A DNA stretch of 64,000 nucleotides from an uncultured Bacilli bacterium. Its GTDB lineage: Bacteria; Bacillota_I; Bacilli_A; RF39; UBA660. A program made the translations under genes and the position numbers. The notes below the pieces were generated by a model that was given only the letters and a program-made list of their open reading frames with translations, did no database searches and had not been told where the DNA came from. Every line of letters starts with the position of its first letter. The first letter of the stretch is position 1. Shown here one piece after another: positions 1 to 15,234 of this stretch. The stretch covers positions 98,209 to 162,208 of the forward strand of contig CAKPFD010000002.1 in NCBI GenBank assembly GCA_934149515.1. Direction: 5' to 3'.

Positions 1-1
1 T

Positions 2-715: not shown

Positions 716-801
716 TTCATTGAATATATTATATTTCGGATAAAAAGCATTATATAAAATATTATGAGCTCAAAAAAGTTTAATATATGCCACAAAAAGT
801 A

Positions 802-830
802 TTGACAATAACGAATTAATATTATATAAT
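802..830 (+). promoter_or_regulatory. sigma-A-type promoter of the biosynthetic operon
   Basis: TTGACA (802-807), 17-nt spacer, TATAAT (825-830); perfect consensus. Confidence 0.6.
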
Positions 831-887
831 ATGAACCAAGTTTTGAGTTGTTTGCTCAAATTGGAGCTTTATATTATTAAAATCATT

Positions 888-932
888 AAGGGAGACGAAA
901 GGGCAGACACCTGCTTTTTGTCCCCCTTTTTT
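888..932 (+). terminator. intrinsic-terminator-like hairpin inside the operon leader (attenuator candidate)
   Basis: Long imperfect stem 'AAGGGAGACGAAAGGGCAG-ACAC-CTGCTTTTTGTCCCCCTT' followed by a T6 run. It sits between the promoter and the RBS GAGGTGA (947-953). Confidence 0.5.
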
Positions 933-957
933 GTATAAGAATGTGTGAGGTGATGTT

Positions 958-2256
958 GTGAGAAAAATAGCAGTTATAGGTTTAGGTTATGTTGGATTGA
1001 CCACAGCTCTTGTTTTTGCAAATACAGGCATGGAGGTAGTTTGTATTGATAAAAATGAAGATAAAGTTAAATTATTAAAAAAGAAAAAGATGCCTTTTTA
1101 TGAAAAAGAATGCGATAAACTACTTGAAAAAAATTTTAATAAATTATGTTTTACCTATGATTATAATGTGATTTCTGATGTTGAAATATTCTTTGTATGT
1201 GTTGGAACCCCTTTGAATTGTAAAAATTATTTAGATGTTTCAGAAATTATGAATGCTGTTCAGACTATAAAAAAACATGTTAAACATAACAAATCAATAA
1301 CTATATGTATACGTTCTACAGTTTTGCCTGGAACTTGTGATTTAATTAATAAAACATCAAATTTTTCTGTAGTTCATAATCCTGAATTTTTGTCGCAAGG
1401 TACAGCTATAGATGATTTTATTAATGCTAAAAGAATTGTTATTGGATCAGATGATAAAATGGCAATAAAGAAAATTCAAAATTTGTATAATAGATTTATA
1501 AAATATTATAATGTAGAGATTCCTGTAGTAACAATGGAAGCAAAAGATGCTGAAATGGTTAAATTTGTCGCAAATTCATATTTAGTAATGAGAATATCAT
1601 TTATTAATGAAATGAGCAACTTATGTGAAAATATTGGTGTAAATATTTCAAATGTTATTGATGGAGTTAAATATGATGAAAGAATTGGAGAAAAATATTT
1701 CAAAAATGGAATTGGTTATGGTGGCTCTTGTTTACCAAAAGATACAAATGCAATATTGAAATTTTCAAAGAGTAAAAATTCGATATTGAAACTAGTTAAA
1801 TCAACAATAGAAATAAATGATTTGCAATTAAAAAAATGTTTTAAGATTATAAAACGTGATTTTCCGAGATTGAAAAACATAAAAGTTGCTATCTTAGGAG
1901 TTACTTTTAAAGCCAATACTGATGATATTAGAAATTCATGTTCACTATATTTGACAAATGAATTGTTAAAACATAATGCTAAAATTAATGTGTATGATCC
2001 TAAAGGCATAAATTCATATAAGAAAATTTATGCCAATAAAGTATCGTATTATGATGAAATAGATAAGTGTATATCTGAATGTGATATTATCATAATTGCT
2101 GCAGAGTGGGATACAATTAAAAACTATGATTTTAATAAAATTAAGACAAATAAAACTGTTTATGTTTATGATTTTAAATCATGTATTGATACTAAAAATA
2201 AATTTAATTGTAATATTAAATATTGGTCATTAGGAGGAAATATCAATGGAAAATAA
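958..2256 (+). CDS. UDP-glucose/GDP-mannose 6-dehydrogenase family protein
   Basis: GTG start after a GAGGTGA RBS. N-terminal Rossmann motif 'KIAVIGLGYVGL' and catalytic-Cys motif 'GGSCLPKD'. Confidence 0.8.
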   Translation: MRKIAVIGLGYVGLTTALVFANTGMEVVCIDKNEDKVKLLKKKKMPFYEKECDKLLEKNFNKLCFTYDYNVISDVEIFFVCVGTPLNCKNYLDVSEIMNAVQTIKKHVKHNKSITICIRSTVLPGTCDLINKTSNFSVVHNPEFLSQGTAIDDFINAKRIVIGSDDKMAIKKIQNLYNRFIKYYNVEIPVVTMEAKDAEMVKFVANSYLVMRISFINEMSNLCENIGVNISNVIDGVKYDERIGEKYFKNGIGYGGSCLPKDTNAILKFSKSKNSILKLVKSTIEINDLQLKKCFKIIKRDFPRLKNIKVAILGVTFKANTDDIRNSCSLYLTNELLKHNAKINVYDPKGINSYKKIYANKVSYYDEIDKCISECDIIIIAAEWDTIKNYDFNKIKTNKTVYVYDFKSCIDTKNKFNCNIKYWSLGGNINGK

Positions 2257-3178
2257 AATAGTAAATGCTGGAATTAGATTAACAAGGCAATGTAACATGA
2301 AATGTATGTATTGTAATATTCAAAATACTATACGTAAGGATCTAACATTAAATGAATGGAAAAAGGCTGTGGATATTATTAAAAGTTTGGGAGCTAAAGA
2401 AATAGTTATATTAGGTGGAGAACCAACTCTATATCCTTATATACTTGAACTTGTTGAGTATATATCTAAACATGCAAAACTCACTTGTAATCTAACTACT
2501 AATGCTTTTGACAATTTTGATTTAGTAAAACAATTATTAGAAAATGGGCTAAATTCATTAGGAGTGAGTATTGATAATTTAGAATTTAAAAATTCCATAA
2601 GCCCATTAAAAGCAAAAAATGGGTTAAATCTGATTGAATACTTAATCTGTAATTCTGTTAATCCTAATATAACAAATTATACAGTTTTAAATAAGAAAAA
2701 TGTGGATTCAATAGTAGATTTGATAAAGTATATGGATGAAAAGGGTGTTTCTACATACATTTTACCATTTCACTGGGGAAATGAGGGAACATTCGATCAT
2801 AGAAAAAACAATGAAAAATTTGCTTTTGTAACTGATGAAGATATAATAAAATATATGACCGCAATAGATAAAATTATAGATATGAAAAAAACTGGCTTTA
2901 AAATTAAAAATTCCATAGAGTTTTTAGAAAACTCAAAAAAACATATTAAAAACTTGGATTGGAAATGTAATGGTTTATCCGAATTAAGAATTGATTCCGA
3001 TGGAAAACTTGTATGTTGCTGTGATAAAATCGGTAATGTAAATAAAGAATTTACAATATTCGATTTAACAGATAGATTAGATGAATTTTATTTGGAAAGA
3101 GCAAAGGATGCTGAAAATTGTAATGGTTGTTTATGGCCAAGTTCTTTTGAGGCAGAATTGAAAAGAGGGAGAAATTAA
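2246..3178 (+). CDS. radical SAM enzyme with C-terminal SPASM/twitch-like Cys cluster
   Basis: CxxxCxxC 'CNMKCMYC' near the N-terminus and a 'GGEPTL' SAM-binding motif. C-terminal 'CNGLSELRIDSDGKLVCCC ... CNGC'. Overlaps the upstream gene by 11 nt. Confidence 0.8.
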   Translation: MENKIVNAGIRLTRQCNMKCMYCNIQNTIRKDLTLNEWKKAVDIIKSLGAKEIVILGGEPTLYPYILELVEYISKHAKLTCNLTTNAFDNFDLVKQLLENGLNSLGVSIDNLEFKNSISPLKAKNGLNLIEYLICNSVNPNITNYTVLNKKNVDSIVDLIKYMDEKGVSTYILPFHWGNEGTFDHRKNNEKFAFVTDEDIIKYMTAIDKIIDMKKTGFKIKNSIEFLENSKKHIKNLDWKCNGLSELRIDSDGKLVCCCDKIGNVNKEFTIFDLTDRLDEFYLERAKDAENCNGCLWPSSFEAELKRGRN

Positions 3179-3180
3179 AT

Positions 3181-3864
3181 ATGGAAGATATGCACATTCA
3201 TTTAAAAGAAGCAATATATAACCAAGAATTATTTGATATATATGTAGAGAAATGTATTACTTGTGGTATAAAAAAGGCTGTTTTTCTAGATCATGGTAAT
3301 AGAATTTCTAATAAACATAAGCCAGTTCTTTCCACAAAAGAAGCAATAGATCAGTTAGATAAAAAGGTTTCTGAATTTAGAAAAAGTGATTTAGCTAGTA
3401 AGATAGAAATATTAAAGGGTATTGAAATAGATTATTCGGATGATTTAAATTTTAGAAATGAAACATTTGATATACTAAATTATGGAAAATTTGATTGGAT
3501 TGTTGGTGCTATTCATAGTATGAGTTTTGATGATTATGGAAATTATTTAAGAGCAATAATTGATATGCTAAACAGTTATGACATAAATGTAATAGCACAT
3601 ATTAAAAAAACTGGTCAATATAACATGTATGATGATTTATTTGGAGAGATTTTAGACATATGTAATAAAAAGAACGTTTTGATCGAAATAAATACAAGTG
3701 ACAGGTCAAGATGGGATGATGACCAACTTTATTACATGTTAGAAATAATGAAAAAGTATAATGTAAACTATGTCTTTTCATCAGATGCACATAAGTTTGA
3801 AGAAATAGGATATATGATTAAAGAAACAGAGGAAAAGGTGAAAAGATGGCAAAGGACAAGATAA
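3181..3864 (+). CDS. PHP-domain (HisJ-type) phosphoesterase
   Basis: N-terminal 'DMHIH' and C-terminal 'SSDAH' metal-binding motifs, typical of histidinol-phosphatase-family PHP proteins. Confidence 0.65.
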   Translation: MEDMHIHLKEAIYNQELFDIYVEKCITCGIKKAVFLDHGNRISNKHKPVLSTKEAIDQLDKKVSEFRKSDLASKIEILKGIEIDYSDDLNFRNETFDILNYGKFDWIVGAIHSMSFDDYGNYLRAIIDMLNSYDINVIAHIKKTGQYNMYDDLFGEILDICNKKNVLIEINTSDRSRWDDDQLYYMLEIMKKYNVNYVFSSDAHKFEEIGYMIKETEEKVKRWQRTR

Positions 3865-4868
3865 AAGTTTGGATATTACATGCTGGTATAGAACATCCTA
3901 GCCCATATTTTTATAATTTTTGTTTTGAATTAAATACTTATGAAAATTATGAATATATTGTCAATCCAGAATTACCTTTGAAAGAGAAAATAGATAAAGG
4001 TATTATTTATTTTAATAGATTAAAAAGGTTTTATAATAATGATAATATTGAAACTGCTAATGAGTTTTTAAACAATATTGATTATTTGAAACAAAAAGGA
4101 TGGAAAATTGTATGGACGCTTCATAATTTTTTTCCAATAGATAGAAAAATAAACTATGTGGATGAATATGTAACAAGTGAATTTATAAAAAAATGTGATT
4201 TAGTATTTACTTTATCTGAATATATGAAAAAAAGTATAAAAGAACATTTTGATATTAATGCAATAAATCATGGTATAGGCATAAACAAATTGAATAATAA
4301 TTGTATAAATCCAAAAATAAAAGAGATAAAAAAGAGCAACGAATTTACATTTACTTTTATAGGTAATATATATAAATATAAAATGCTTGATCAAGTAATA
4401 AAGTCTTTTGATAAAATGAAAGATTGTCGTTTAATTATTGCAGGAAGAGAAGCAAAAAATGCTAATGTAAACATTAACTATTTGATAGGTAATAATAAGA
4501 ATATAATATATATAAATGCTTTTGTTGATGAGAATGACTGGAAAAAATTAGCAAAGGTTACTGATGCATTTGTAAGTCTTTATGATTTGAGATTTCCAGC
4601 ATTTAAATATGGATTTTTTCCTTCAAATTATATTAATATAGCTAAAACTGGGATTAGATGTATTTCACCAAAAAGCGACATAATTGAAGAGATAATTAGT
4701 AAAGAACAATTAATAACTTATGATTTTGATGATAAAAATGGTTTATATAACGCAATGTTAAAAGCTAAGTCATCAGTATCCAACAAAGTCAAAGTTGATC
4801 AAAAATATAATTATAGTTGGAAAGAAACTGTTGATAAGTTTGTAAATAGTTGTAATAAATTATTTTAG
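3846..4868 (+). CDS. hypothetical protein, possible GT-B-type glycosyltransferase
   Basis: 340-aa ORF overlapping the upstream gene by 19 nt. Only weak resemblance to group-1 glycosyltransferases ('WTLHNFFP', 'FIGNIYKYK'). The function is uncertain. Confidence 0.35.
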   Translation: MAKDKIKVWILHAGIEHPSPYFYNFCFELNTYENYEYIVNPELPLKEKIDKGIIYFNRLKRFYNNDNIETANEFLNNIDYLKQKGWKIVWTLHNFFPIDRKINYVDEYVTSEFIKKCDLVFTLSEYMKKSIKEHFDINAINHGIGINKLNNNCINPKIKEIKKSNEFTFTFIGNIYKYKMLDQVIKSFDKMKDCRLIIAGREAKNANVNINYLIGNNKNIIYINAFVDENDWKKLAKVTDAFVSLYDLRFPAFKYGFFPSNYINIAKTGIRCISPKSDIIEEIISKEQLITYDFDDKNGLYNAMLKAKSSVSNKVKVDQKYNYSWKETVDKFVNSCNKLF

Positions 4869-4887
4869 ATAATCAGTGGTGATATTA

Positions 4888-5901
4888 ATGAAGAAAAATA
4901 TATTGTTAAGTATTATTGTCAATACATTCAATTGTGAAAATTATTTGAAACAATGTTTAAAAAGTATAAAAGAACAGTTATCTGTAGAATCAGAACTAAT
5001 AGTTATCGATGATAGTTCCACTGATAATACTTTCAAAATAATTGAAAGTGAACTTTGCGACTTATCAAATTGTTCATACTATTCTATTGAACATTCTGGT
5101 ATATCAAATTCAAGAAATTTTGGAATAAGCAAAGCAAAGGGAACTTATATTATGTTTGTGGATGGTGATGATTATATAATAGAAAATTCTTTAAATAAAA
5201 TAATAGAGTATCTAAAATCGAGTGAGTTTGATCTAACTTTATTTAATACTGTCAAATACTTTGATAGTAAAAATTATTTTGAAATAGAAAAATTTTCTCT
5301 ACAAGATGGGCAATGTTTATCCGAACAAGATTTAATTAATAACAAAATATGTGCTAGACCATGGAGATTTATTTATAGAAGAGATGTGTTAAAAAATAAT
5401 TATATTCTTTTCCCAAAAGACCTGGTTTATGAGGATGAAGAATGGGTGCCAAAAGTTATTTATTACTCTAAATGTTTAAACTTCTTGGATGAGTATGTAT
5501 ATGTTTATAGAAAAAGAAAAGGTTCAATCACTGATGATAAAGATATTATATACACAATGAATTTAGCATCAGTGATTGAAAGAACATACAATTGGAGCTT
5601 AAATCGCACTCATAAAAAAGAATATATATATTTTTCTTTATCGCGTTGTATAAGAAACGTATTAGGTGCATTAAATGATTTTGAATCACCAGAAGATAAA
5701 AAAATTATATTAGATTGGTATGAAAAAAATAGAAATATGATAATGGATATTTTAGAATATAATAAAAAATTAAAATATTCTATTAATATGTTTGGACCAA
5801 ATGATGGCATAAAGTTTTATAAAAAAGTATTTAGGGAAAAATATTCTATCACTAAAGAAAAAGTGTTAGATATCAAAAACATTACACATACTGGGAGGTA
5901 A
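4888..5901 (+). CDS. family 2 glycosyltransferase
   Basis: 'LSIIVNTFNCENYL', 'VIDDSSTDNT' and 'FVDGDDY' (DxD) motifs. ATG 4888 is preferred over the upstream GTG 4876 of the ORF track. Confidence 0.8.
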   Translation: MKKNILLSIIVNTFNCENYLKQCLKSIKEQLSVESELIVIDDSSTDNTFKIIESELCDLSNCSYYSIEHSGISNSRNFGISKAKGTYIMFVDGDDYIIENSLNKIIEYLKSSEFDLTLFNTVKYFDSKNYFEIEKFSLQDGQCLSEQDLINNKICARPWRFIYRRDVLKNNYILFPKDLVYEDEEWVPKVIYYSKCLNFLDEYVYVYRKRKGSITDDKDIIYTMNLASVIERTYNWSLNRTHKKEYIYFSLSRCIRNVLGALNDFESPEDKKIILDWYEKNRNMIMDILEYNKKLKYSINMFGPNDGIKFYKKVFREKYSITKEKVLDIKNITHTGR

Positions 5902-5903
5902 AA

Positions 5904-6902
5904 ATGAAAGACATTATAATAGTGGGGAGTGGTAAAGCAGCATTATTGCATTATAATTCTTATAAAAAATTAAAAAATAAAGTAAAAGTATATTTTACCG
6001 ATATAAAAAATTGTAGTAATTATATCCCAAATAATAAATTATATTCTACGATACAAGAATGTATAAAATCCAATGATTTAAAAATCAATAATTTGATAGT
6101 GGATATATGTACACCTAAAAGTGAATTTTTAACAATTATAGAGAATTGTAAAAGTTTAGGAATAAAAGATGTATTGGTTGAAAAACCTTTTGTAATTGAT
6201 AATAAAACATTGATGAAATTAGATAATATGAATATAGTAATGGTTGAAAATTACTTATTTTCTAAACTCACCCAGATGATAAAAAAATATTTAGATGAAA
6301 ACAATAAAAAAGTTGATTTAATATATACTAATTTTTCAAAAAATAGAATTTCTGAAAGTATAGCTGGAAGAGGTTATAATACTGAAGTAACACTAAACTA
6401 TGAAATTGAAATTCCTCATCAAATATATTTAACACAATATTTTTTAAATAATCCTAATAGTATTCAAAATGATATTACTTGTTCAAGAGATTTAAAAATA
6501 GGTGATGTATCGTTAGAAAATCATGGATATGGATTAATAATATCTAGGTATAATGATATAGATATTATATATGAAAGTAATCTGACATCAGTTATTACTC
6601 AAAAAAGAATTATTATACGTACTAAAGATGGTTACACAATTGAAGGAAATTATGCGATATACTCAAAAGACTTGAAATTAATAAAACCAGCAAATATGAG
6701 TATCTATTATAATGGCAAAATTATGTATAGCGAATTTATAGAAGAAGATGATAACTTTACATATTTTATTGATGCTGCTTATTCATATTTTAATAAAGAA
6801 GCAAATAATCCTGATTTAGTTGATATAAGTACGTTTTCTAATATTATGAATTTATATTGCGATAATTTATTGGGAAGAAAAAATACAAAAACAAGTAGGT
6901 GA
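5904..6902 (+). CDS. Gfo/Idh/MocA-like NAD(P)-dependent oxidoreductase
   Basis: N-terminal 'IIIVGSGKAA' Rossmann motif and 'VEKPF' signature. Confidence 0.6.
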   Translation: MKDIIIVGSGKAALLHYNSYKKLKNKVKVYFTDIKNCSNYIPNNKLYSTIQECIKSNDLKINNLIVDICTPKSEFLTIIENCKSLGIKDVLVEKPFVIDNKTLMKLDNMNIVMVENYLFSKLTQMIKKYLDENNKKVDLIYTNFSKNRISESIAGRGYNTEVTLNYEIEIPHQIYLTQYFLNNPNSIQNDITCSRDLKIGDVSLENHGYGLIISRYNDIDIIYESNLTSVITQKRIIIRTKDGYTIEGNYAIYSKDLKLIKPANMSIYYNGKIMYSEFIEEDDNFTYFIDAAYSYFNKEANNPDLVDISTFSNIMNLYCDNLLGRKNTKTSR

Positions 6903-7882
6903 TTAAAGTAATGTTGAATGTTATTAACATTGGAGACTTAATAAATTTAAAAATTTATGCTCCATCAGAAACATTAACTGATATATCAAAAAGATTTGCA
7001 AATATCAAGAAAAGTGATTATTATGATTTTGAAATTTATTATAGGAATTTTGTTGATTTTTCTGAAATAAAGGAAGGGACTAAAGTTTTACCATTTCGAA
7101 ACGCAATGTATATTGTTAATCAAATCGATGAAAAGGTTATTGCTTATTCTCCTAAACAAAAGTATTCGTGCGAAAATCTAGTGATAAGAGAAAAAAATAA
7201 AATAGATATATTATGTCGGGATGATCATGATAGTAAAATTTTGATTAGACTTATAACCGAATTATTAATTAGAAAGTTGTTAGAAAAAAAATTTTTTCCT
7301 ATTCATGCTTCTTGTATAATGAAAGATGATGAAGCCATATTGTTTTTTGGCGGTAAAAACAGCGGAAAATCTACTGCACTATTTACTCACATTCTTTTGA
7401 ATGATGCTTATCCAATATCAAATGATATAACATTTGTTGGCAAAGAAAATGGTAAATGGCAAGCCTTTGGATTGCCATATGATATCACATTTGATAAAGA
7501 TATATTTTATCAATTAGAAAGTAAAAAGATTAATTTAGACACATTCATTAAGGCTCCAAAATATGAAAGTAACAAAATTAGATTTGATGTTTCAGAATTT
7601 TCTGATGCTTTTGGGACAAATTGGATTTGGCATGCCCCTATATCAACAATTAACTTTGTTAATTTAAACAAAGAAAATGTTTTTTCTGAGGTTTCGAATA
7701 TTTCACTTGAAGATAGTATTCTAGAATTAGATAAATATGGAAAAGATAAAAACTTTTCCTTCGGAGATTATTTAAAACTCAACAATTTATATCCGACGTT
7801 TGAATATGAAAATCTATCCAAAGAGGTTCGTTTTAATAAATTAGAAGGGAATATACTAAAACACTATTTGAGGAGGAAGTAG
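6899..7882 (+). CDS. HprK-related P-loop kinase-like protein (paralog 1)
   Basis: 'PIHASCIMKDDEAILFFGGKNSGKSTALF...PISNDITFV' follows the HPr-kinase C-domain pattern (H-A-S, Walker A, downstream acidic motif). GTGA start/stop overlap with the upstream gene. Confidence 0.55.
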   Translation: MIKVMLNVINIGDLINLKIYAPSETLTDISKRFANIKKSDYYDFEIYYRNFVDFSEIKEGTKVLPFRNAMYIVNQIDEKVIAYSPKQKYSCENLVIREKNKIDILCRDDHDSKILIRLITELLIRKLLEKKFFPIHASCIMKDDEAILFFGGKNSGKSTALFTHILLNDAYPISNDITFVGKENGKWQAFGLPYDITFDKDIFYQLESKKINLDTFIKAPKYESNKIRFDVSEFSDAFGTNWIWHAPISTINFVNLNKENVFSEVSNISLEDSILELDKYGKDKNFSFGDYLKLNNLYPTFEYENLSKEVRFNKLEGNILKHYLRRK

Positions 7883-7884
7883 AA

Positions 7885-8667
7885 ATGCAAAAAGTATCTA
7901 TAGAATATAGCATAGTTAGTCGTGGTACTGAAAAATATAATAATTGTGGTTATATGGCCATTAGTAAAATATACAATTTAAGCAGATATATATTAAATGT
8001 TGATCATAATATAAAAGATACAAATTTAAATAAAAATTGTTTAATAGCCAAGTCTTGCTATGATATAGAGAATATCGTTTTTTCTAGATTCCAATTAATA
8101 ACAGCTTTAACTTTTGAAAGAATCAGATATAGAATTAATGATAATGTTTTAATATTAGGATTAGGAAATATTGGTATAAGTTGCTTATTCTATTTATTAG
8201 ATAATAATTTTAAAAATATCACCATTTATGTAAGAAATAAAAATGATAAGATACTTAATTTATTAAAATTAGTAAAGTTGAAATATAACGTGGATATAAA
8301 AATAATTTCTAAATTTAATTATAAATATGATACTTATATTGATACTACTGGTGATTCAATTGTTTTAAGTAATGTATTTAATAATTCTGATTTTAATAGC
8401 ACAATAATTATATTAAGTACCCCAAGAGATGAAAAATACTTAATATCTCCATTAATGATTAATCGTAAAAACTTAACAGTAATTGGTGGCCATGAATTAA
8501 ATGGAATAAATGTTAATCATAGGCAATATATTTTTGAAAAGGTTCTAGAAGTTAATAAAACTAAAAGATTTTTAAAAGAGTTTATTAATGAATATAATTA
8601 TTCAGAAGAAAAATTGAAAAGTATAAAACGACAAAAATCAAATTTTATTGAGATATTTAAATATTAA
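7885..8667 (+). CDS. NAD(P)-binding dehydrogenase-like protein
   Basis: 'VLILGLGNIGISC' dinucleotide-binding motif. It resembles the cofactor domain of MDR/alcohol dehydrogenases. The function is uncertain. Confidence 0.4.
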   Translation: MQKVSIEYSIVSRGTEKYNNCGYMAISKIYNLSRYILNVDHNIKDTNLNKNCLIAKSCYDIENIVFSRFQLITALTFERIRYRINDNVLILGLGNIGISCLFYLLDNNFKNITIYVRNKNDKILNLLKLVKLKYNVDIKIISKFNYKYDTYIDTTGDSIVLSNVFNNSDFNSTIIILSTPRDEKYLISPLMINRKNLTVIGGHELNGINVNHRQYIFEKVLEVNKTKRFLKEFINEYNYSEEKLKSIKRQKSNFIEIFKY

Positions 8668-8685
8668 TGCAAATGAGGTGGTATT

Positions 8686-9405
8686 ATGAGTGCTTTAATT
8701 GTTTCGGATTATGACGGAACATTAAAAAAAGATGAAAATATAGAAGAATTGAAAAAGAATCTAAAAATATTGAGATCGTTTTTAACTGATGATATTAATA
8801 TTATGGTTTCTACTGGAAGATTGTATAAATCCATAAGATCAGAAGCAGATAAATTTGAAATTCCATTTAATTATATGTCTTGTGCAAACGGAAATATTTT
8901 GTTTGATAAAAATTTTCAAATAATCTTTAAGACAAATATCAGTTCAAAAATAATAAATGATTTACAACCATATTACAGTCAAATACTTGGAATTGAACCA
9001 TTAGATGAGTATGGCATAATAACACCTAATAATCCTACTGAATATTTAATCCATCTAGTTGAAGAACAGAAAGTTAGAAAGCAAATAGTAAAATTGCTTT
9101 TATCATCTCCTGATGTTGATTATTGTACTGATGGTAGTAATAGATATGCTATTCATATATTTACATTATCAAATAAAATAAAAACTATTGAAATTGTAAG
9201 AGACAAATTAAACTTATCTCAATCAGAAATATATACAATAGGAGATGGACCAAATGATAAAGATATGATAAAAAAATATAATGGATTAATTGTTGGCAAT
9301 TTATTTGATGAGGATAAAAATTTGAGTAATTTTCCTAAATACGAAACATTTTATTCGTGTGCGGAAGAATTACAACAAACTTTGAAAAGAGGGAGAAGAA
9401 AGTGA
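8686..9405 (+). CDS. HAD-IIB (Cof-type) phosphatase
   Basis: Motif I 'VSDYDGTL' and motif IV 'GDGPNDKDM'. Confidence 0.75.
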   Translation: MSALIVSDYDGTLKKDENIEELKKNLKILRSFLTDDINIMVSTGRLYKSIRSEADKFEIPFNYMSCANGNILFDKNFQIIFKTNISSKIINDLQPYYSQILGIEPLDEYGIITPNNPTEYLIHLVEEQKVRKQIVKLLLSSPDVDYCTDGSNRYAIHIFTLSNKIKTIEIVRDKLNLSQSEIYTIGDGPNDKDMIKKYNGLIVGNLFDEDKNLSNFPKYETFYSCAEELQQTLKRGRRK

Positions 9406-10175
9406 TTGACTTTATATATAATATTAATAATAAAAATATATACATTCATTGTGAAATAGAAGAATATTGCCACAAGATAGAAAAATGGTTAACTGCTTAT
9501 GATATTATATCTTCAAACAAATACAGCTCATATATTAAAATTTATAAAAATAAGACAGTATGGAATATAGATGGTATTGAAAAAATTATCAATAATAAAA
9601 TAAAACACACAGATTTATATCCTTTATTTTATAATTTGATTGCTAATGCAGTCCTAGATGATGATAATGTTCTTCTACATTCGGCGGTTTTATGTTATAA
9701 TAATATAGGGATTTTAGTTGTCGGGGATTTTGATTCCGGAAAGACAACACTGTGTTTGAAAGCAATGGAAAACAAAGTTGAAGTGGTATCAGCAGATCAA
9801 ACACATTTAGGTTATGTAAAAAACAAAATAATGTTAAGACGTGGTTCATTATACATGAGAATTGGTGAGGATAACGAAGTATTTTTAAGCCCAGCTAAAT
9901 CAGAGATAGAAATTAAGTTAATTATAAATCTTGTTGGTGTATGTGATAATGGAAAATTATACTTTGATGTAATTAATAATAAAGAACACATAATTAAAAA
10001 AATGTTTAAATTTTGTACATGGCATTCTGATATTCCACTATTTACAGAAACCGAAATGTTGAATATAGACAGAACGAAAATATACAAATGGCTATCTAGA
10101 ATAGATATACCATTTTACAATGTAAGGGGAGATTCAAAAAATATCATAATAAAAATAAAGGAGGTCTTAAAATGA
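9402..10175 (+). CDS. HprK-related P-loop kinase-like protein (paralog 2)
   Basis: 'LLHSAVLCYNNIGILVVGDFDSGKTTLCL...VVSADQTHL'. GTG 9402 follows the RBS GGGAGAAG and overlaps the upstream stop (GTGA). The ORF-track start at 9357 lies inside the upstream gene. Confidence 0.5.
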   Translation: MIDFIYNINNKNIYIHCEIEEYCHKIEKWLTAYDIISSNKYSSYIKIYKNKTVWNIDGIEKIINNKIKHTDLYPLFYNLIANAVLDDDNVLLHSAVLCYNNIGILVVGDFDSGKTTLCLKAMENKVEVVSADQTHLGYVKNKIMLRRGSLYMRIGEDNEVFLSPAKSEIEIKLIINLVGVCDNGKLYFDVINNKEHIIKKMFKFCTWHSDIPLFTETEMLNIDRTKIYKWLSRIDIPFYNVRGDSKNIIIKIKEVLK

Positions 10176-11197
10176 TAGAAGAAACTGTTTTTACAAATGA
10201 AAAGATAATAGAAGTTGTAAAAAAGATTTATAATATTGATGTTCATCAAGTTGAAAAATTAAATCGTGGTAGTGCTAACTTGTATTCGTTAAATGAAAAC
10301 AAATATATATTAAAAGAATTTCAAACGAAATATACAAAAGAAGAAATTGATAAGGAAATAAATATTATAAATCATCTAAAAAAAGATAATATTCCAGTTC
10401 CAGAATATATAAAAACTATAACTGGTGAATATAGTTTTATATATGAAAATAGAGTTATAATTATGCAAAAATTTATTGATGGATATACAATAGAATCTAA
10501 TACTGGAAATTACGAACAAATTTTGGAATCTGCTGAATATCTTGGTAAAATTATTAAGAGTCTTGCAACTTTAAAAGTTGAATTACCTAGTAATGATGTA
10601 TCAAGTTGGTATTCAAAAGAAACAATTAACGAGAGCATAGATAAACAAGAAAAGCTGTTGAAAAAGATATCTATAGAAAATTATCCACAAATATATAATG
10701 ATTTAACTGATAAAATTTCTATGTTGAAATATGTCAGAGATAATTTAGATTTTAGTGATATGAATAAATTGACTATTATGAATACTCATGGTGATTATAG
10801 TTTATTACAGTTTATATATAAAGATGGTAAAATAAATGCAATAATAGATTTTGTTTCAGCTTGTAAAATGCCAATTGTGTGGGAGGTAATTAGATCTTAT
10901 AGTTACATTGATCCAAAGGCAAAAGAAGGAACAATTGATATTGACAATTTAGTTGAATATGTGAGAACTTTTACCAACTATGTTAAACTAAATAAATATG
11001 ATTTTAAATTTATGTCATATTTATATTTGGTTCAACTTCTTGCAAGTACGTTTGGATATAAACAATATATTGCAGATAATTCAAAAACAAGCTTGTTAGA
11101 TTTTGCATATTTTAGAACAAGATTGTGTAAATTTTTATTTAAAAATGCAGAAAAAATAGCTAATACTTTAATAGAAGAATTAATGAATGAAAATTAG
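10172..11197 (+). CDS. aminoglycoside-phosphotransferase/choline-kinase-fold kinase
   Basis: 'NTHGDYSLLQF' (HxD catalytic loop) and 'AIIDF' (DFG-like) motifs. ATGA overlap with the upstream gene. Confidence 0.7.
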   Translation: MIEETVFTNEKIIEVVKKIYNIDVHQVEKLNRGSANLYSLNENKYILKEFQTKYTKEEIDKEINIINHLKKDNIPVPEYIKTITGEYSFIYENRVIIMQKFIDGYTIESNTGNYEQILESAEYLGKIIKSLATLKVELPSNDVSSWYSKETINESIDKQEKLLKKISIENYPQIYNDLTDKISMLKYVRDNLDFSDMNKLTIMNTHGDYSLLQFIYKDGKINAIIDFVSACKMPIVWEVIRSYSYIDPKAKEGTIDIDNLVEYVRTFTNYVKLNKYDFKFMSYLYLVQLLASTFGYKQYIADNSKTSLLDFAYFRTRLCKFLFKNAEKIANTLIEELMNEN

Positions 11198-11222
11198 TTA
11201 TTAAGTTAGGGGGAGAAGAAAA

Positions 11223-13409
11223 ATGGGAAATATTTTTAATGAAGAAAAAGAATATTTAGGATATGTGAAGGAAAGTTTAGAAAGCGAAAAAGAGTATTGT
11301 AGAAAGGAAATGCGTGAAATTCCAAAAAGATATACAAATGTTTTACAAGGAGATGCTTTTTTGGTAGAAGGATTGATGTCAACTCAAGCGACTAAACTTA
11401 GAAAATTAGAACTATCTGAAAAAAAACCTTATTTTGGAAGAATTGATTTTCTTTCTGATGGTAGTAATAATGTGGCAAAAATATATATTGGTAAAACAAC
11501 AATTCATGGTAAGAACAATGAAATAGTAACAACAGACTGGAGAACTCCTATTTGTAGTTTATATTATGATAGTGATTTGGGTAGAGTTAGTTATGAAGCA
11601 CCTTCTGGATTGGTACATGGAGATTTAAAATTAAAACGTCAAATTGTTATTGAAGATGGAGAGTTAGTTGATGTACTAGATACTAGCTTAGTAAGTAATG
11701 ATGAATTATTGCAACCATATTTAAGTGTTAATGCCGATAATAAAATGAAAACAATTATAGCTTCAATACAAAAAGAACAAAACGAAATAATTAGAAGACC
11801 AATTTCAGAAAATATTATAGTTCAGGGTGTTGCTGGTTCAGGTAAGACTTCAGTAGCTTTGCATAGAATTGCATATTTAGTTTTTAATTTAGAAAAAAAG
11901 ATAAATTCTAGTCAATTTTTAGTTATTGGACCAAATCAATACTTTTTGAATTATATATCATCTATTTTACCAGAATTAGAAACCGAGCCTGTCGAACAAC
12001 AAACCTATATGAATTTGATAAATGAACTTACGAATGAAAAATTAACATTAGATACTCAAAATACATTATTTAATCAAACTAAAGAAAAAGAGGAGTATAA
12101 AAAAATTCAAGCCTTCAAAACATCACTTGAGTATAAAAAAGCACTTGATTATTTTATGCAAGATTATTTATCAAAAGGTATTGTATTAGAAGGTTTTAAA
12201 ATTGATGGTGAAGAAATATATAGTGCTGATGAAATAAAAAGAATTTTATTTTCTGGTATAAATTCATTTCCAAACTTTGAGAGTGCTTGTAGATATTGTG
12301 TTGGTAACTTTAGAAATCATACTGATGAAATATATAGTAAATTAAATCAAAAATATAGGGAAATATATACAAGCAATTTACCAAAGGATGATCCTGTTAG
12401 AAAAGAGGCAGTGGCAAAAAGTACAGCTCTTAACAATTTAGTTAAAAATGATGGAGTAAAATTACTTAGAAACTACTTTAAAAAATTACAATTAGGACCA
12501 TTAAATACTTATAAATTATTTATTGCTAATTTAGGGTCATATACTAGCGAATTGACTGATACTGAACTTTTAAAGCTTCAAAAAAGTACATTACAAACTT
12601 TGAAAAAAAGAAAAGTAACATTTGAAGATCTTCCATCATTACTACATGTAAACAACTTACTTTGTGGATGTAATCAAAAATATAATCATATAGTAATAGA
12701 TGAAGCTCAGGATTATGGATTATTTCATTTTGATGCATTAAAGGAAACATTCCCTAGTAGTACATTTTCTATATATGGTGATTTAGCACAATCTATATAT
12801 TCTTATAGAGGTATAAAAGATTGGGAAAGCGTAGCTTCTGAAATATTCGGTAATAATTGTTCAATCTTGAATTTAAATAAAAGTTATAGAACTACTATTG
12901 AGATCACAAATAATGCAAATAAAGTCTTAAGACAGATGGATTTAACTGAAGCTGAACCTGTAATAAGACATGGTGGAGAAATTTCATTTGAAGATTTTGC
13001 TAAATCTGATGATTATAAAATTGCTAAAATAAATGATTGGTTAAATAAAGGATATCAGACTATTGCTGTTATTTGTAAAACAGATAAAGAGGCTGAAAAT
13101 ACTTATAATTCTTTAAGCAAGTATGGAATTGATATTACACATATAAAAGCTAGTGATGTTGACTATAATGGTGGTGTGTTTGTATTGACAAGTGCGTTAT
13201 CCAAAGGTTTGGAATTTGATGCTGTTATAATAAATGATGCTTCAAATAAAGTGTATGATGAGAACAATATGGATGATATGCATCTTTTATATGTTGCTGA
13301 AACTAGAGCATTGCATGAGTTAGATGTATTATATGATAAGACTTTATGTCCAGTGTTTTCAAATGAGAGAACTATGGATAAGCCAAAAGTTTTAGTTAGA
13401 AAAAAATAA
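11223..13409 (+). CDS. helD: HelD-type UvrD-like helicase (RNA polymerase recycling factor family)
   Basis: N-terminal 'KPYFGRIDF' HelD signature, Walker A 'GVAGSGKTSVALHRIAYL' and Walker B 'VIDEAQD'. RBS GGGGGAGAAG. Only 25 nt downstream of the kinase gene. Confidence 0.8.
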   Translation: MGNIFNEEKEYLGYVKESLESEKEYCRKEMREIPKRYTNVLQGDAFLVEGLMSTQATKLRKLELSEKKPYFGRIDFLSDGSNNVAKIYIGKTTIHGKNNEIVTTDWRTPICSLYYDSDLGRVSYEAPSGLVHGDLKLKRQIVIEDGELVDVLDTSLVSNDELLQPYLSVNADNKMKTIIASIQKEQNEIIRRPISENIIVQGVAGSGKTSVALHRIAYLVFNLEKKINSSQFLVIGPNQYFLNYISSILPELETEPVEQQTYMNLINELTNEKLTLDTQNTLFNQTKEKEEYKKIQAFKTSLEYKKALDYFMQDYLSKGIVLEGFKIDGEEIYSADEIKRILFSGINSFPNFESACRYCVGNFRNHTDEIYSKLNQKYREIYTSNLPKDDPVRKEAVAKSTALNNLVKNDGVKLLRNYFKKLQLGPLNTYKLFIANLGSYTSELTDTELLKLQKSTLQTLKKRKVTFEDLPSLLHVNNLLCGCNQKYNHIVIDEAQDYGLFHFDALKETFPSSTFSIYGDLAQSIYSYRGIKDWESVASEIFGNNCSILNLNKSYRTTIEITNNANKVLRQMDLTEAEPVIRHGGEISFEDFAKSDDYKIAKINDWLNKGYQTIAVICKTDKEAENTYNSLSKYGIDITHIKASDVDYNGGVFVLTSALSKGLEFDAVIINDASNKVYDENNMDDMHLLYVAETRALHELDVLYDKTLCPVFSNERTMDKPKVLVRKK

Positions 13410-13419
13410 GCATGATAAG

Positions 13420-13854
13420 TCATGTTTGTTTTTTTATTAATTCATCAATTGAAAGTTTGAATTTTTTTGCAATTTTAAACAAATATGCTGTTTGAATTGT
13501 TATATATCCATTTTCATATAAGGAATATGTTGATTTATTAATTTCTAACAAGTTAATTATGTCTTTTTGTTTCAAATTGTTTCTAATTCTAAATTCTTTT
13601 AAATTTTTTCCAAGTTTTATTAAATTAATTTTTTGAGAAGAGAAGAAATATTCATTTTTGTTGCTTAATCCTACTATATAGTCAATGCTTATTTTGTAAT
13701 AATTACTCAATTCATACAATTTGTTTAGAGTTATTGTATTTTTTCCTGTTTCCCAGCACGAATATGTTGAACGTTCTACAGATAATATTTTTGCTATTTC
13801 CATTTGTGTTAGTTTTTTCTTTTTTCGTATTAAAACTAGTCTATTAAATCGCAT
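13420..13854 (-). CDS. XRE-family regulator with two HTH domains
   Basis: Two HTH_3-like units ('LTQMEIAKILSVERSTYSCWETG' and 'LKQKDIINLLEINKSTYSLYENG'). Confidence 0.75.
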   Translation of the reverse strand: MRFNRLVLIRKKKKLTQMEIAKILSVERSTYSCWETGKNTITLNKLYELSNYYKISIDYIVGLSNKNEYFFSSQKINLIKLGKNLKEFRIRNNLKQKDIINLLEINKSTYSLYENGYITIQTAYLFKIAKKFKLSIDELIKKQT

Positions 13855-13866
13855 TCTTTTACTTCC

Positions 13867-14319
13867 TTATCTTCTAAAGTGCATATGATTACTTTTTCCA
13901 CAAATCCAATCCATTGATATATTATACTTCTTGCATATTGTATAAATAGTAATTGTATTGATTAAATAATGACCGGTTTCATAACCACTATATGTTGTTT
14001 GGAAAAAACCACAATTATCGGATAATTTTTGCTGAGTTAAATTTAACGTTTTTCTAATTTCTTTAAGCCTTTTTCCTATGCTTTCTTTTGTTGGGGTGAT
14101 TTTGCTTTTATATTTAGTATTTTCTCTTGTTAGTCCAGTCACAAAATCTAATGAGTAATTATATAAATTGCAAAATTTAATTAACTTATTGAAAGGCATT
14201 GTATCTTTTCCTGTTTCCCAGCCAGATACTGTATACTTACTTACACCAAAGACATATCCTAGTTCTGATTGTGTCATTTCCAATTCTTCTCTACAAAATT
14301 TTAAATTATTATCAATCAT
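13867..14319 (-). CDS. XRE-family regulator with two HTH domains (tandem paralog)
   Basis: 'MTQSELGYVFGVSKYTVSGWETG' and 'LTQQKLSDNCGFFQTTYSGYETG'. Same architecture as the neighbouring gene. Confidence 0.75.
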   Translation of the reverse strand: MIDNNLKFCREELEMTQSELGYVFGVSKYTVSGWETGKDTMPFNKLIKFCNLYNYSLDFVTGLTRENTKYKSKITPTKESIGKRLKEIRKTLNLTQQKLSDNCGFFQTTYSGYETGHYLINTITIYTICKKYNISMDWICGKSNHMHFRR

Positions 14320-15233: not shown

Positions 15234-15234
15234 T

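Follow-up and report, generated by a model that had tools for sequence, protein, structure and literature searches.

The 64,000-nucleotide window analyzed here, which comes from an uncultured gut Bacilli/Mycoplasmatota-like bacterium, carries twelve + strand genes that probably form one operon, driven by a promoter and probably regulated by a terminator in its 5' leader. It includes a conserved four-gene core, encoding a radical SAM enzyme, an MDR-like Rossmann protein, a PEPCK/HprK-fold P-loop protein, and an APH-fold kinase. We put at about an even chance the reading that the operon specifies a cytoplasmic route to a small soluble glycosylated metabolite, via phosphorylated intermediates and on a nucleotide-type or nucleotide-sugar-type scaffold.

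RESULTS

Organization of the operon

The following features were assigned.

802-830, + strand: sigma-70 promoter, TTGACA-17-TATAAT, matching the consensus at 12/12 positions
837-932, + strand: 5' leader with a hairpin (842-860), an AU-rich linker, a terminator hairpin (889-927), and T6 (927-932)
958-2256, + strand: g1, NDP-sugar 6-dehydrogenase, UDP-glucose type (TIGR03026, 394.7 bits; cut-off 189.8)
2246-3178, + strand: g2, radical SAM enzyme with a four-Cys C-terminal auxiliary-cluster motif (PF04055, 69.9 bits)
3181-3864, + strand: g3, PHP-family phosphoesterase (PF02811, 43.1 bits)
3846-4868, + strand: g4, GT-B (GT1/GT4-like) glycosyltransferase (PF00534, 31.3 bits; cut-off 26.4)
4888-5901, + strand: g5, accessory GT2 glycosyltransferase (PF00535, 98.5 bits)
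5904-6902, + strand: g6, divergent Rossmann oxidoreductase, Gfo/Idh/MocA-like (PF01408, 17.7 bits, under the cut-off of 24)
6899-7882, + strand: g7, PEPCK/HprK-fold P-loop protein by predicted structure; start may be 6911
7885-8667, + strand: g8, MDR-type NAD(P)-binding protein with a shortened N-terminal domain (weak domain matches)
8686-9405, + strand: g9, HAD-IIB (Cof-type) phosphatase (PF08282, 71.2 bits; TIGR01484, 47.7 bits, cut-off 41.8)
9402-10175, + strand: g10, second HprK-like P-loop protein (hhalign against the g7 family, 90% probability)
10172-11197, + strand: g11, APH-fold kinase (PF01636, 47.6 bits)
11223-13409, + strand: g12, HelD, RNA-polymerase recycling helicase (NF041464, 449 bits; cut-off 419)

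The ORF list and translations gave a continuous series of + strand reading frames across 958-13409. Thirteen genes had been counted there in a preliminary description; twelve were found, separated by −19 to +25 nt. The last, previously grouped with the biosynthetic genes, is HelD, which leaves 11 biosynthetic genes and is probably co-transcribed with the cluster without being a biosynthetic enzyme. The junctions listed earlier were all correct, namely 2256/2246 (−11), 3178/3181, 3864/3846 (−19), 4868/4888, 5901/5904, GTGA at 6899-6902, 7882/7885, 8667/8686, GTGA at 9402-9405, ATGA at 10172-10175, and 11197/11223, as was a convergent gene following the operon, whose end lies at 13420. For g7, ATG at 6911 is more probably the start than 6899, judging from its AGGTGA site and the choice of gene callers on identical contigs, which puts the GTGA overlap at 6899 in doubt. 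Nearly all start codons are preceded by GGAGG-like ribosome-binding sites.

Promoter and conserved leader

The single consensus promoter reported at 802-830 was borne out at every position and is also kept in related loci L012, L013, L015, and L103. Weaker promoter-like matches in this AT-rich DNA are not commoner than chance (149 versus 134 ± 11 in shuffles). The leader, absent from the preliminary description, is conserved and has an intrinsic terminator just before g1. Its predicted fold reaches −28.7 kcal/mol (z = −2.9, RNAfold), and both helices are kept, with 3 compensatory pairs, among 5 distinct homologues (RNAalifold). A search of Rfam returned no match for it. A terminator-like hairpin also stands directly ahead of the first gene in other cluster variants. 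The leader is a candidate attenuator or riboswitch.

Enzymes encoded by the operon

Every motif quoted earlier was found in the translations, and catalytic motifs are conserved across the operon enzymes. The three kinase-like and two phosphatase genes described previously are present with catalytic residues intact. Among the earlier fold calls, those of the UDP-glucose-type dehydrogenase, radical SAM, PHP, GT1, GT2, HAD-IIB, and APH proteins pass Pfam/NCBIfam cut-offs. The Gfo/Idh/MocA call for g6 is faint, and the HprK-like calls for g7 and g10 pass no HMM cut-off, g7 being placed by its structural model and g10 by a profile match and motif. At the equivalog level of NCBIfam, 0/11 biosynthetic genes have a match.

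All three UDPG_MGDP_dh Pfam domains and GGSCLPKD are present in g1, whose top equivalogs, TuaD and AglM, both score below cut-off. Metal ligands of g3 (HxH, E82, H112, H140, and D202-x-H204) and residues of g9 (D8xD10, K164, and D191) are conserved. The g4 transferase is kept in cluster types A, B, and F at 38-80% identity, and g5 is missing in close variants L015-L018, L100-L102, and L104. Conserved positions of g6 in 17 homologues are GxG, D33, E93-K94-P95, and H172; its profile search of PDB sequences gave no match.

The radical SAM enzyme g2 has seven invariant cysteines among 27-29 homologues (C16, C20, C23, C241, C258, C292, and C295). The earlier description of an auxiliary-cluster domain thus holds as to the radical SAM domain and an invariant four-Cys motif; assignment as a SPASM protein was rejected, as PF13186 has no match and only four C-terminal cysteines are conserved. 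In a Foldseek comparison its AlphaFold2 (AF2) model (pLDDT 90.5) was closest to viperin, SuiB, MoaA, SkfB, and BlsE (TM 0.6-0.67). These folds are equally distant (TM about 0.6), and therefore no reaction is singled out. A proposed BtrN-type analogy was not supported, g2 showing no specific similarity to BtrN. Distant members of its wider superfamily carry GT2 domain fusions. The core partner of g2 is g8, found without exception in loci that have a radical SAM enzyme of 43% identity or more and lie on a contig long enough to reveal the neighboring genes. Its family weakly matches Glu_dehyd_C, ADH_zinc_N, and Shikimate_DH in 5-9 of 11 homologues and conserves GxGxxG, S12-R13-G14-T15-E16, and H203-E204.

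No Pfam or NCBIfam family matches g7, but its AF2 model (pLDDT 91.2) matches ATP-PEPCK (E 5e-8) and the HprK/P kinase domain (E 1e-4) in Foldseek; H136, G151..G156-K157-S158, and D176 are conserved. The g10 protein, with a weak HprK match among PDB sequences, conserves H93, G108..G113-K114-T115, and D132, and appears to be a distant paralogue of g7, tied to it by the profile match and the shared His/P-loop/Asp motif only. Conserved residues of g11 are K48, E62, H206-G-D208, and D226-F. Its family is far bigger than the cluster family, and homologues 60-71% identical to it occur outside any such cluster; g11 may therefore have an independent role.

Distribution of the cluster family

The cluster family was found only in uncultured gut Bacilli/Mycoplasmatota-like MAGs and is patchily distributed, with about 90 protein clusters in one gut lineage. 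As to whether gene order is conserved, a question raised earlier, the full order is kept where the radical SAM enzymes are 67-99% identical; at 43-60% the core is kept, the order is shuffled, and the accessory genes differ. GT2 and UDP-glucose dehydrogenase (UGDH) are dispensable inside the close clade, and most close variants, L104 excepted, have HelD after the cluster, whereas types B-F do not.

Minimal cassettes L095, L094, and L020 have no glycosyltransferase. NUDIX genes lie in or adjoin the cassettes of L011, L019/L092, L097, L020, L094, and L095; adenosine-deaminase-like genes occur in L020 and L094, and in L096 a domain of this family is fused to the g10 domain. L020 also has a fusion of the P-loop protein to a pyrimidine-5'-nucleotidase and a dTMP-kinase-like gene. 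The L011 variant carries two ABC exporters of the ABC_membrane type, and some variants have a fatty-acyl-AMP-ligase-like gene. Some cassette neighbors in these small genomes may be adjacent by chance. The NUDIX, adenosine-deaminase-like, dTMP-kinase-like, and 5'-nucleotidase genes of divergent cassettes make a nucleotide or nucleotide sugar a likelier scaffold than a cyclitol. The operon in the window has no NUDIX, deaminase, or nucleotide kinase gene, so the nucleotide link rests on divergent relatives.

DISCUSSION

In the proposed route, g2 and the MDR-like g8 would act on a phosphorylated substrate, altering its sugar ring by a radical modification and then by a redox step. Phosphate handles would come from the P-loop and APH kinases, and the PHP and HAD-IIB phosphatases would take them off (cryptic phosphorylation). 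UDP-glucose dehydrogenase would provide UDP-glucuronate, and the GT1 and GT2 enzymes would add sugars; the APH kinase, possibly together with co-transcribed HelD, may shield the producer. Natural-product-like variants with ABC exporters and acyl-AMP ligase support this reading. Against it, envelope glycopolymer loci, too, typically carry UGDH, GT1, and a TuaG-like GT2, no enzyme is matched at the equivalog level, and the operon has no exporter.

The preliminary interpretation stands as far as it described one operon of soluble enzymes that maps onto no characterized pathway, and searches of NCBIfam, PADLOC, the PDB, and the literature gave nothing better; its gene count, SPASM assignment, and cyclitol analogy were not supported. 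The sugar-phosphate cyclase and aminotransferase that define aminoglycoside/cyclitol pathways are missing, and an upstream GNAT gene is not conserved with the cluster. As stated there, the operon holds no exporter, priming transferase, aminotransferase, or precursor.

A rather unlikely alternative is that the operon makes an unusual activated sugar with which GT1 and GT2 decorate an envelope or spore glycoconjugate (teichuronic-acid-like, LTA/WTA, or coat glycan), export and polymerization being encoded elsewhere. Among equivalog-type models, g1 comes closest to TuaD and g5 to TuaG, both of teichuronic acid synthesis; GT2 is fused to distant radical SAM relatives, a Wzx-like (Polysacc_synt) flippase-like gene lies 15 kb from the operon (28794-30086), and a type-B cluster has YfhO, GT2, and GtrA genes a few kb ahead of it. 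Kinase and phosphatase steps are typical of activated-sugar routes such as those to heptose and KDO, and CotS-type APH-fold kinases accompany glycosyltransferases in spore coats. However, genes for a priming transferase, flippase, polymerase, or nucleotidyltransferase are missing from the operon, and 0/12 of its proteins have a transmembrane segment; the minimal cassettes do without any glycosyltransferase and the close clade without GT2 and UGDH, and the ABC_membrane exporters and acyl-AMP ligase of variants better suit a secreted small molecule. It is improbable that the core cassette is an anti-phage or antiviral module that, like prokaryotic viperins with kinases, converts a cellular nucleotide to a chain-terminating analogue, with HelD and NUDIX limiting self-damage. 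Viperins are among the top Foldseek matches of g2 (E 2e-12), PADLOC pVip models match it at 56 and 40 bits, and minimal cassettes join radical SAM with kinases, NUDIX, and a dTMP-kinase-like gene; the operon lies in a lower-GC stretch (25% versus about 30%), and on identical contigs a DNA methylase and HTH genes are found upstream of it. Yet g2 scores 45.6 against a cut-off of 180 with the NCBIfam prokaryotic viperin model, MoaA scoring higher, and has an invariant four-Cys auxiliary motif that, to our knowledge, viperins lack. The other nine proteins scanned had no PADLOC match except generic UvrD-helicase matches to HelD, relatives in phage and plasmid collections do not exceed 27% identity, housekeeping genes (RRF, TspO, and gyrB/gyrA) make up the flanks, and known nucleotide-analogue defense systems are far smaller than an 11-enzyme glycosylating pathway.

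Decidedly improbable is salvage, repair, or detoxification of nucleotides or cofactors (for example, damaged nucleotides or 5'-deoxyadenosine) in a reduced-genome host, with no dedicated product. One 60% identical APH homologue sits amid five NUDIX genes and Ham1, HD, and His_Phos genes, cassette neighbors include adenosine-deaminase-like, nucleotidase, and kinase genes, and radical-SAM by-products are substrates of the APH-fold kinase MtnK and the deaminase DadD. UGDH, two glycosyltransferases, acyl-AMP ligase, and ABC exporters are instead anabolic or secretory, and the operon has no uptake transporter. A salvage route would not be expected to have a radical SAM enzyme of its own whose auxiliary motif is invariant, and the spread is patchy, confined to one gut lineage. 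A RiPP cluster, with a peptide modified by g2 and then given phosphate by the HprK-like proteins in the manner of phosphorylated lasso peptides, is very improbable indeed. HprK homologues do act on lasso precursors, and g7 has a faint ScmC match (E 0.0045); weak matches to sactipeptide and PqqE-type maturases were seen, and SuiB and SkfB are fold neighbors of g2. Nevertheless, the operon has no PqqD/RRE domain or gene, protease, or peptide exporter, and the radical SAM motif begins at residue 16, leaving no space for an N-terminal recognition domain. No small conserved ORF was found; only the leader gives an intergenic gap above 25 nt, and the ORF apparent there is upstream of the likely transcript start and not conserved. 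The genes are chiefly those of sugar and nucleotide enzymes.

For the metabolite route that we favor, near sequence or fold relatives of g2 that act on nucleotides or nucleoside sugars include MoaA, viperins, BlsE, and AbmM; the peptide-modifying SuiB, SkfB, and PqqE score similarly. The proposed pairing of g2 with g8 would resemble radical dehydratase/reductase pairs and viperin. Cryptic phosphorylation is at work in nucleoside pathways, and the three-gene thmABC cluster, which combines a radical SAM enzyme, a nucleoside kinase, and an NTPase, leads to 4'-thiothymidine (PMC12691670).

Operon organization and genomic setting

The ORF listing gave a continuous + strand series of 12 open reading frames at 958-13409, rather than the thirteen genes of the preliminary description.

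Genes of the operon
958-2256, + strand: g1, NDP-sugar 6-dehydrogenase, UDP-glucose type (UGDH)
2246-3178, + strand: g2, radical SAM protein
3181-3864, + strand: g3, PHP phosphoesterase
3846-4868, + strand: g4, GT-B glycosyltransferase (GT1)
4888-5901, + strand: g5, GT2 glycosyltransferase
5904-6902, + strand: g6, Gfo/Idh/MocA-like protein, below cut-off
6899 (or 6911)-7882, + strand: g7, PEPCK/HprK-fold P-loop protein
7885-8667, + strand: g8, putative MDR-type NAD(P)-binding protein
8686-9405, + strand: g9, HAD-IIB phosphatase
9402-10175, + strand: g10, HprK-like P-loop protein
10172-11197, + strand: g11, APH-fold kinase
11223-13409, + strand: g12, HelD

Intergenic spacing ranged from −19 to +25 nt across the g1-g12 junctions, and every junction quoted in the preliminary description was correct. 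The UGDH and radical SAM genes overlap by 11 nt, and GGAGG-like ribosome-binding sites precede nearly all start codons. The previously reported consensus promoter at 802-830 was confirmed with a 12/12 match. Weaker promoter-like sites were no commoner than in shuffled sequence (149 versus 134 ± 11), and internal promoters are therefore neither demonstrated nor excluded. No terminator-like sites were detected on the + strand inside 958-13409. As had been noted, convergent genes follow the operon, the nearest ending at 13420.

A 10-nt gap separates the end of HelD from this converging pair of Xre-type regulators (13420-14319, − strand), two neighboring paralogs with two HTH_3 domains each. Genes further downstream are housekeeping in nature (RRF, TspO, gyrB/gyrA). 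G+C content is 25% in the operon region compared with about 30% further on; at finer scale, the operon with its flanks (window 1-16000) has 23-27%, and most of 16000-64000, which holds gyrB/gyrA, P-type ATPases, and a two-component system, has 27-34%. Foreign origin or a distinct expression class may account for the low G+C at the operon. Proteins of ~620 aa with a DUF6273 domain flank the operon region, at 22719-24584 in the window and, upstream, at L001:2410-4272 in identical contigs. Scans of the whole window returned no tRNA and, at the gathering threshold, no Rfam family.

The radical SAM enzyme

The radical SAM protein g2 scored 69.9 bits against PF04055 (cut-off 29.5), and its CX3CX2C motif (C16-x3-C20-x2-C23) was invariant among homologs, placing it within the superfamily. 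C-terminal residues C241, C258, C292, and C295 were also invariant, with no cysteine beyond C295, and SPASM (PF13186, a 7-Cys domain with two auxiliary clusters) gave no match in g2. The earlier rSAM-SPASM label thus holds for its first half and fails for its second; as judged from the residue pattern, the 4-Cys motif looks like one auxiliary cluster with full ligation and not like a SPASM pair.

In sequence ranking, MoaA was the closest relative (85 bits; PDB E 6e-19, N-terminal core only), followed by SkfB, PqqE, viperins, AbmM, and BlsE. Scores of 83-85 bits against the MoaA models TIGR02666/TIGR02668 (cut-offs 284-325) and of 45.6 bits against the pVip model NF038283 (cut-off 180) leave g2 outside both families. 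A profile of its C-terminal domain found no detectable relative among PDB sequences. The g2 structural model (pLDDT 90.5) matched viperin, SuiB, MoaA, SkfB, BlsE, and AbmM about equally in Foldseek (TM 0.6-0.67), and with many neighbors at equal distance no subfamily could be assigned in this way.

The g2 family is compact, comprising about 90 protein clusters, none informatively named; an exhaustive profile search with g2 recovered 193 representative clusters at E below 1e-30. More distant relatives, whose names were likewise uninformative, in some cases have a complete SPASM domain together with a GT2 domain at the N-terminus. Three of the distant relatives (P0278, P0313, and P0384; 1100-1500 aa) combine an N-terminal GT2 domain with two radical SAM stretches and SPASM, and these fusions connect the radical SAM superfamily of g2 to glycan chemistry. 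In phage and plasmid collections, tblastn gave no match above 27% identity, and the best plasmid match was an unrelated PqqD-linked RiPP maturase of Bacillus mycoides.

Other operon proteins

The UDP-sugar dehydrogenase, PHP, GT2, and HAD-IIB assignments of the preliminary description passed curated cut-offs. UGDH (g1) matched TIGR03026 at 394.7 bits (cut-off 189.8) and three Pfam domains of the UDP-glucose/GDP-mannose dehydrogenase family, while falling short of the TuaD equivalog (328 against 700). PHP (g3) scored 43.1 against PF02811 (cut-off 26.4) with its metal motifs conserved, and the HAD-IIB protein (g9) scored 71.2 against PF08282 (cut-off 20.9) and 47.7 against TIGR01484 (cut-off 41.8) with Asp nucleophile motifs conserved. 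GT1 (g4) reached 31 bits (cut-off 26), and GT2 (g5) exceeded its curated cut-off. The Gfo/Idh/MocA assignment was not borne out by PF01408 (17.7 bits, cut-off 24), and the g6 profile had no match among PDB sequences, although GxG...EKP...H motifs are conserved; because of these motifs, g6 is likely a distant relative of that family.

The APH-fold protein g11 scored 47.6 bits against PF01636 (cut-off 23.2) with K48, H206-G-D208, and D226-F conserved. It reached no resistance-enzyme equivalog (APH(3'), 26 against 205), and its single sequence found no match among PDB sequences. Neither Pfam nor NCBIfam assigned a family to g7, g8, or g10; g7 had no Pfam match and scored 18.4 bits against TIGR04355 (HprK-related kinase, cut-off 200), and its profile found no PDB sequence match. 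The HprK-like call on g7 thus found no support in family models but did in the fold: an AlphaFold model built from a 24-sequence alignment (pLDDT 91) had ATP-dependent PEP carboxykinases as its best matches (E 5e-8), ahead of the HprK/P kinase domain (E 1e-4). Both g7 and g10 conserve HprK-like signature residues, which in g7 read His...GxxxxGK[ST]...D. By profile comparison, g10 appears to be a distant paralog of the g7 P-loop core (hhalign probability 90%); its PDB sequence matches were weak HprK or P-loop ones. Weak Rossmann matches were obtained for g8, which appears to be an NAD(P)-binding protein of the MDR type whose N-terminal domain is shortened. The catalytic residues expected from each fold are conserved across 15-29 homologs per family, and all eleven enzymes look functional.

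Distribution and cluster variants

Contigs from human gut metagenomes, several labeled Hadza, carry an identical radical SAM copy in the same gene order. Matches in genome collections were metagenome-assembled genomes (MAGs) labeled uncultured Bacilli, Erysipelotrichaceae, and Candidatus Fimihabitans (Mycoplasmatota), with a few implausible bin names. Contigs L012, L016, and L020, near-identical or related copies, were deposited as uncultured Rickettsiales, Muribaculaceae, and Alphaproteobacteria MAGs; such names for a low-GC Bacilli-type cluster are probably binning or labeling errors. Host sources of the cluster family were human (Hadza and Nepal samples), rabbit, chicken, and an RUG-labeled, presumably rumen, MAG. 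None of the matches was a cultured member of the family. The sole cultured match, Paenibacillus albidus (L022), sits in a different multi-radical-SAM cluster; it was left out of inference together with L010 and L023, in which the radical SAM protein likewise has 33% identity and belongs to other multi-radical-SAM clusters.

Clusters were compared at about 35 loci by tblastn and ORF comparison. Conservation of gene order, which had been singled out for checking, held: relatives with radical SAM identities as low as 67% showed the full order g1-g11 plus HelD, with GT2, UGDH, and HelD each absent from some members of this clade (at least 67%). In L098 and L013 (99% and 87% radical SAM identity), the upstream UGDH ORF matched partially (68% identity over partial length in L098; 84% coverage in L013) and may be disrupted or mosaic. 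At 43-60% radical SAM identity, the gene order was reshuffled.

Divergent cluster variants (rSAM, radical SAM gene)
Type B (L092, L097, L105, L019, L093): (UGDH)-acyl-AMP ligase-hydrolase-rSAM-(NUDIX)-PHP-GT1-g8-HAD-g10-APH-g6-GT2
Type C (L096), among others: g10::adenosine-deaminase fusion, second PHP, cytidylyltransferase-like, hexapeptide acyltransferase, AMP-binding enzyme
Type D (L011): phosphatase-rSAM-g7-APH-g8-Gfo-UGDH-g10, two ABC exporters, NUDIX, sugar-isomerase-like TIM-barrel protein
Type E, minimal (L095): NUDIX-rSAM-g7-APH-g8
Type E, minimal (L094): NUDIX-rSAM-g7-APH plus adenosine-deaminase-like gene
Type E, minimal (L020): deaminase-NUDIX-rSAM-g7-APH-g8, then P-loop::pyrimidine-5'-nucleotidase fusion and dTMP-kinase-like gene
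Type F (L009): APH-GT1-g8-g10-rSAM

From the gene sets of these divergent loci, the invariant core is therefore the radical SAM protein, the MDR-like g8, a PEPCK/HprK-fold protein, and the APH-fold kinase. NUDIX genes occur in 6 of about 10 distinct divergent cassettes and adenosine-deaminase-like domains in 3, one of them fused to a P-loop protein. In this 555-aa fusion (L096:6470-8137), residues 1-248 share 38% identity with g10 of the window, and residues 266-553 form an adenosine-deaminase-family domain with 36% identity to the stand-alone gene of L020.

A conserved leader RNA

A leader of about 100 nt (837-932), overlooked in the preliminary description, lies between the promoter and g1; its predicted folding energy is −28.7 kcal/mol (z = −2.9).

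Leader elements
842-860, + strand: small 5' hairpin
889-927, + strand: long terminator hairpin followed by T6

The promoter and both helices were kept in related loci, with 3 compensatory pairs among 5 distinct sequences. Other cluster variants have unrelated leaders that likewise close with a terminator-like hairpin directly before the first gene. A permissive Rfam scan found no family for the leader. The arrangement looks like transcription attenuation and makes the leader a candidate attenuator or riboswitch; its conserved terminator is a possible handle on the regulatory ligand. An apparent 36-codon ORF starting at 831 was rejected as a leader peptide or precursor, as it starts ahead of the likely start of transcription and L012 and L013 do not conserve it.

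The APH-fold kinase outside the cluster, HelD, and the upstream GNAT

With 677 hits, the APH family of g11 is far larger than the cluster family. At L118:7192-14555, a 60% homolog lies among GNAT, HAD, His_Phos_1, RNHCP, five NUDIX, phosphodiesterase, Ham1-like, and HD genes, a run followed by RelA/SpoT that forms an unusually dense nucleotide "house-cleaning" island. At L120:8348-11011, a 71% homolog stands after MazE-like, ABC_tran, and ABC2_membrane genes, and no radical SAM cluster lies in the vicinity; this arrangement looks like a resistance operon. These contexts fit a nucleoside-type or resistance-type kinase, and since the family extends beyond the cluster, g11 may act independently of the pathway.

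HelD (g12), an RNA polymerase recycling motor, is probably cotranscribed with the operon (25-nt gap, no hairpin). The preliminary description counted it within the cluster; it passes the HelD equivalog NF041464 (449.2 bits, cut-off 419) and is best read as a housekeeping neighbor. A dedicated resistance role, or a part in self-protection, is speculation, given this equivalog match and the absence of HelD after the cluster in L104 and types B-F. In L009, a 607-aa SNF2/ResIII helicase (11037-12860) follows the rSAM gene, as HelD follows the cluster in the window clade; both families include RNA-polymerase-associated motors, and this may be coincidence. The GNAT gene upstream (17-715) was discarded as a cluster gene, since other members have different upstream genes.

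Proposed function

We conclude that this is a biosynthetic operon with a radical SAM gene and that none of its core families has been characterized. Literature searches on the gene combination found no matching system, in agreement with the earlier statement that it maps onto no characterized pathway. With moderate confidence, we propose that it makes a small soluble glycosylated metabolite on a nucleotide-type or nucleotide-sugar-type scaffold; the nucleotide link comes from comparative context rather than from the window itself. A constant core accompanied by tailoring genes that vary (glycosyltransferases, acyl-AMP ligase, acyltransferase), with exporters in one variant, is typical of natural-product clusters. 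The repeated recruitment of NUDIX, deaminase-like, and nucleotide kinase or nucleotidase genes by divergent cassettes, together with the nucleotide or nucleoside-sugar substrates of the nearest radical SAM relatives, favors a scaffold of the nucleotide or nucleotide-sugar kind over a cyclitol. The preliminary interpretation is thus partly supported, without its SPASM label, its BtrN/aminocyclitol analogy, and its inclusion of HelD and of GNAT as self-resistance.

Pfam and NCBIfam searches over the 12 proteins found no priming transferase, flippase, polymerase, aminotransferase, cyclase, or PqqD; there was no precursor ORF, and none of the 12 had a predicted transmembrane segment. These results bear out the reported lack of exporter, priming transferase, aminotransferase, and precursor peptide and speak against three alternatives: an envelope-polymer locus complete in itself, an aminocyclitol pathway, and a RiPP. 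A sugar pathway for an envelope or spore glycoconjugate would accommodate the TuaD- and TuaG-like best matches, the GT2 fusions in the wider radical SAM superfamily, and a Wzx-like gene encoded on the opposite strand at a distance of 15 kb. However, the operon also has no exporter or ligase by Pfam and NCBIfam and falls outside the capsule, teichoic, teichuronic, and O-antigen classes, and with no membrane protein of its own such a role seems rather unlikely. A RiPP cluster in which g2 is the maturase is most improbable, since g2 has no N-terminal extension and no small ORF is conserved. A viperin-like antiviral module is improbable: g2 stays below the cut-offs, its auxiliary motif differs, and the setting is housekeeping. 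PADLOC found no partner genes and no known defense system, giving weak pVip matches to the radical SAM protein (56 and 40 bits), generic UvrD matches to HelD, and nothing else. Nucleotide salvage or detoxification, in place of biosynthesis, we consider quite improbable.

For the glycosylated nucleotide-type metabolite, the radical SAM protein and its obligatory MDR-like partner suggest that a sugar ring would undergo a radical step and then a redox step. With its three kinases and two phosphatases, the operon would be consistent with the cryptic phosphorylation known from nucleoside natural products. The window version would use UGDH, GT1, and GT2 to attach sugars, glucuronate probably among them. 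A precedent is thmABC, a three-gene radical SAM, kinase, and NTPase cluster that makes 4'-thiothymidine (PMC12691670).

A fuller reading, tentative and on the unlikely side when taken whole, is that the core, often with NUDIX, may define an undescribed gut-Bacilli pathway family converting a common nucleotide to a sugar-modified (e.g., deoxygenated) nucleoside antimetabolite. The window operon would then yield a glucuronate-containing glycoside, with the APH kinase, NUDIX, and HelD serving self-protection and exporter-adjacent stand-alone APH homologs in neighboring species acting as resistance genes. If true, this would be a new family of small-molecule pathways that depend on radical SAM enzymes and occur exclusively in uncultured gut Bacilli with reduced genomes, organisms seldom credited with secondary metabolism. 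It would also provide a first functional context for four unannotated protein families, namely the 4-Cys-auxiliary radical SAM clade, PEPCK/HprK-fold proteins in small-molecule metabolism, the truncated MDR-like partner, and the large APH-fold family, and a gut-made nucleoside-type antimetabolite would be relevant to microbe-microbe and microbe-phage competition.

Comparison with known systems

MoaA (GTP 3',8-cyclase), the top NCBIfam and PDB sequence match of g2, shares with it, on our reading, a C-terminal auxiliary Fe-S site and a nucleotide substrate. The match lies far below cut-offs and covers the N-terminal core only, g2 has four conserved Cys against three in MoaA, and no other molybdopterin genes occur at the operon. 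Viperins and pVips are the best Foldseek neighbors (E 2e-12, TM 0.62-0.65) and, like g2, are tied to nucleotide kinases. To our knowledge, viperins lack the auxiliary 4-Cys motif present in g2; the cluster here is also much larger and lies outside any defense island.

The C-x16-C...C-x2-C pattern of g2 is, we presume, like the fully ligated auxiliary cluster of the BtrN "twitch" domain, and aminoglycoside and aminocyclitol clusters have glycosyltransferase, dehydrogenase, and APH-type genes in common with the operon. The analogy drawn earlier is not supported: BtrN was absent from the PDB sequence hits and the top 50 fold hits of g2, and the operon has neither a sugar-phosphate cyclase (DOIS, EEVS, or MIPS type) nor an aminotransferase, which places it outside this class. 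In blasticidin S biosynthesis, the cytosylglucuronate decarboxylase BlsE is a radical SAM enzyme acting on a glucuronide derived from UDP-glucuronate, and here the UGDH gene overlaps the radical SAM gene. BlsE is a fold neighbor (E 2e-10, TM 0.65) no closer than other radical SAM enzymes, though, and the operon lacks CGA synthase, aminotransferase, and CMP hydrolase, with UGDH itself absent in several variants. With HprK/P and ATP-dependent PEPCK, g7 shares the P-loop kinase fold and signature, but it is half the size of PEPCK, has no HPr/PTS context, and occurs in a small-molecule operon; a P-loop protein of this kind is once fused to an adenosine-deaminase domain.

The thmABC and albomycin AbmM/AbmG systems are likewise compact clusters with a radical SAM enzyme of roughly 300 aa, one or more kinases, and a nucleotide hydrolase able to confer self-resistance. 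AbmM is both a sequence neighbor (E 7e-8) and a fold neighbor (Foldseek E 5e-8) of g2. The minimal cassettes here follow a comparable plan, NUDIX-rSAM-kinase-kinase-reductase, although their kinases have PEPCK/HprK and APH folds rather than being AbmG-type nucleoside kinases, and an MDR-like partner and a 4-Cys motif come on top. In the window version, NUDIX is missing, and the additional genes are those for UGDH, two glycosyltransferases, two phosphatases, and a Gfo-like enzyme.
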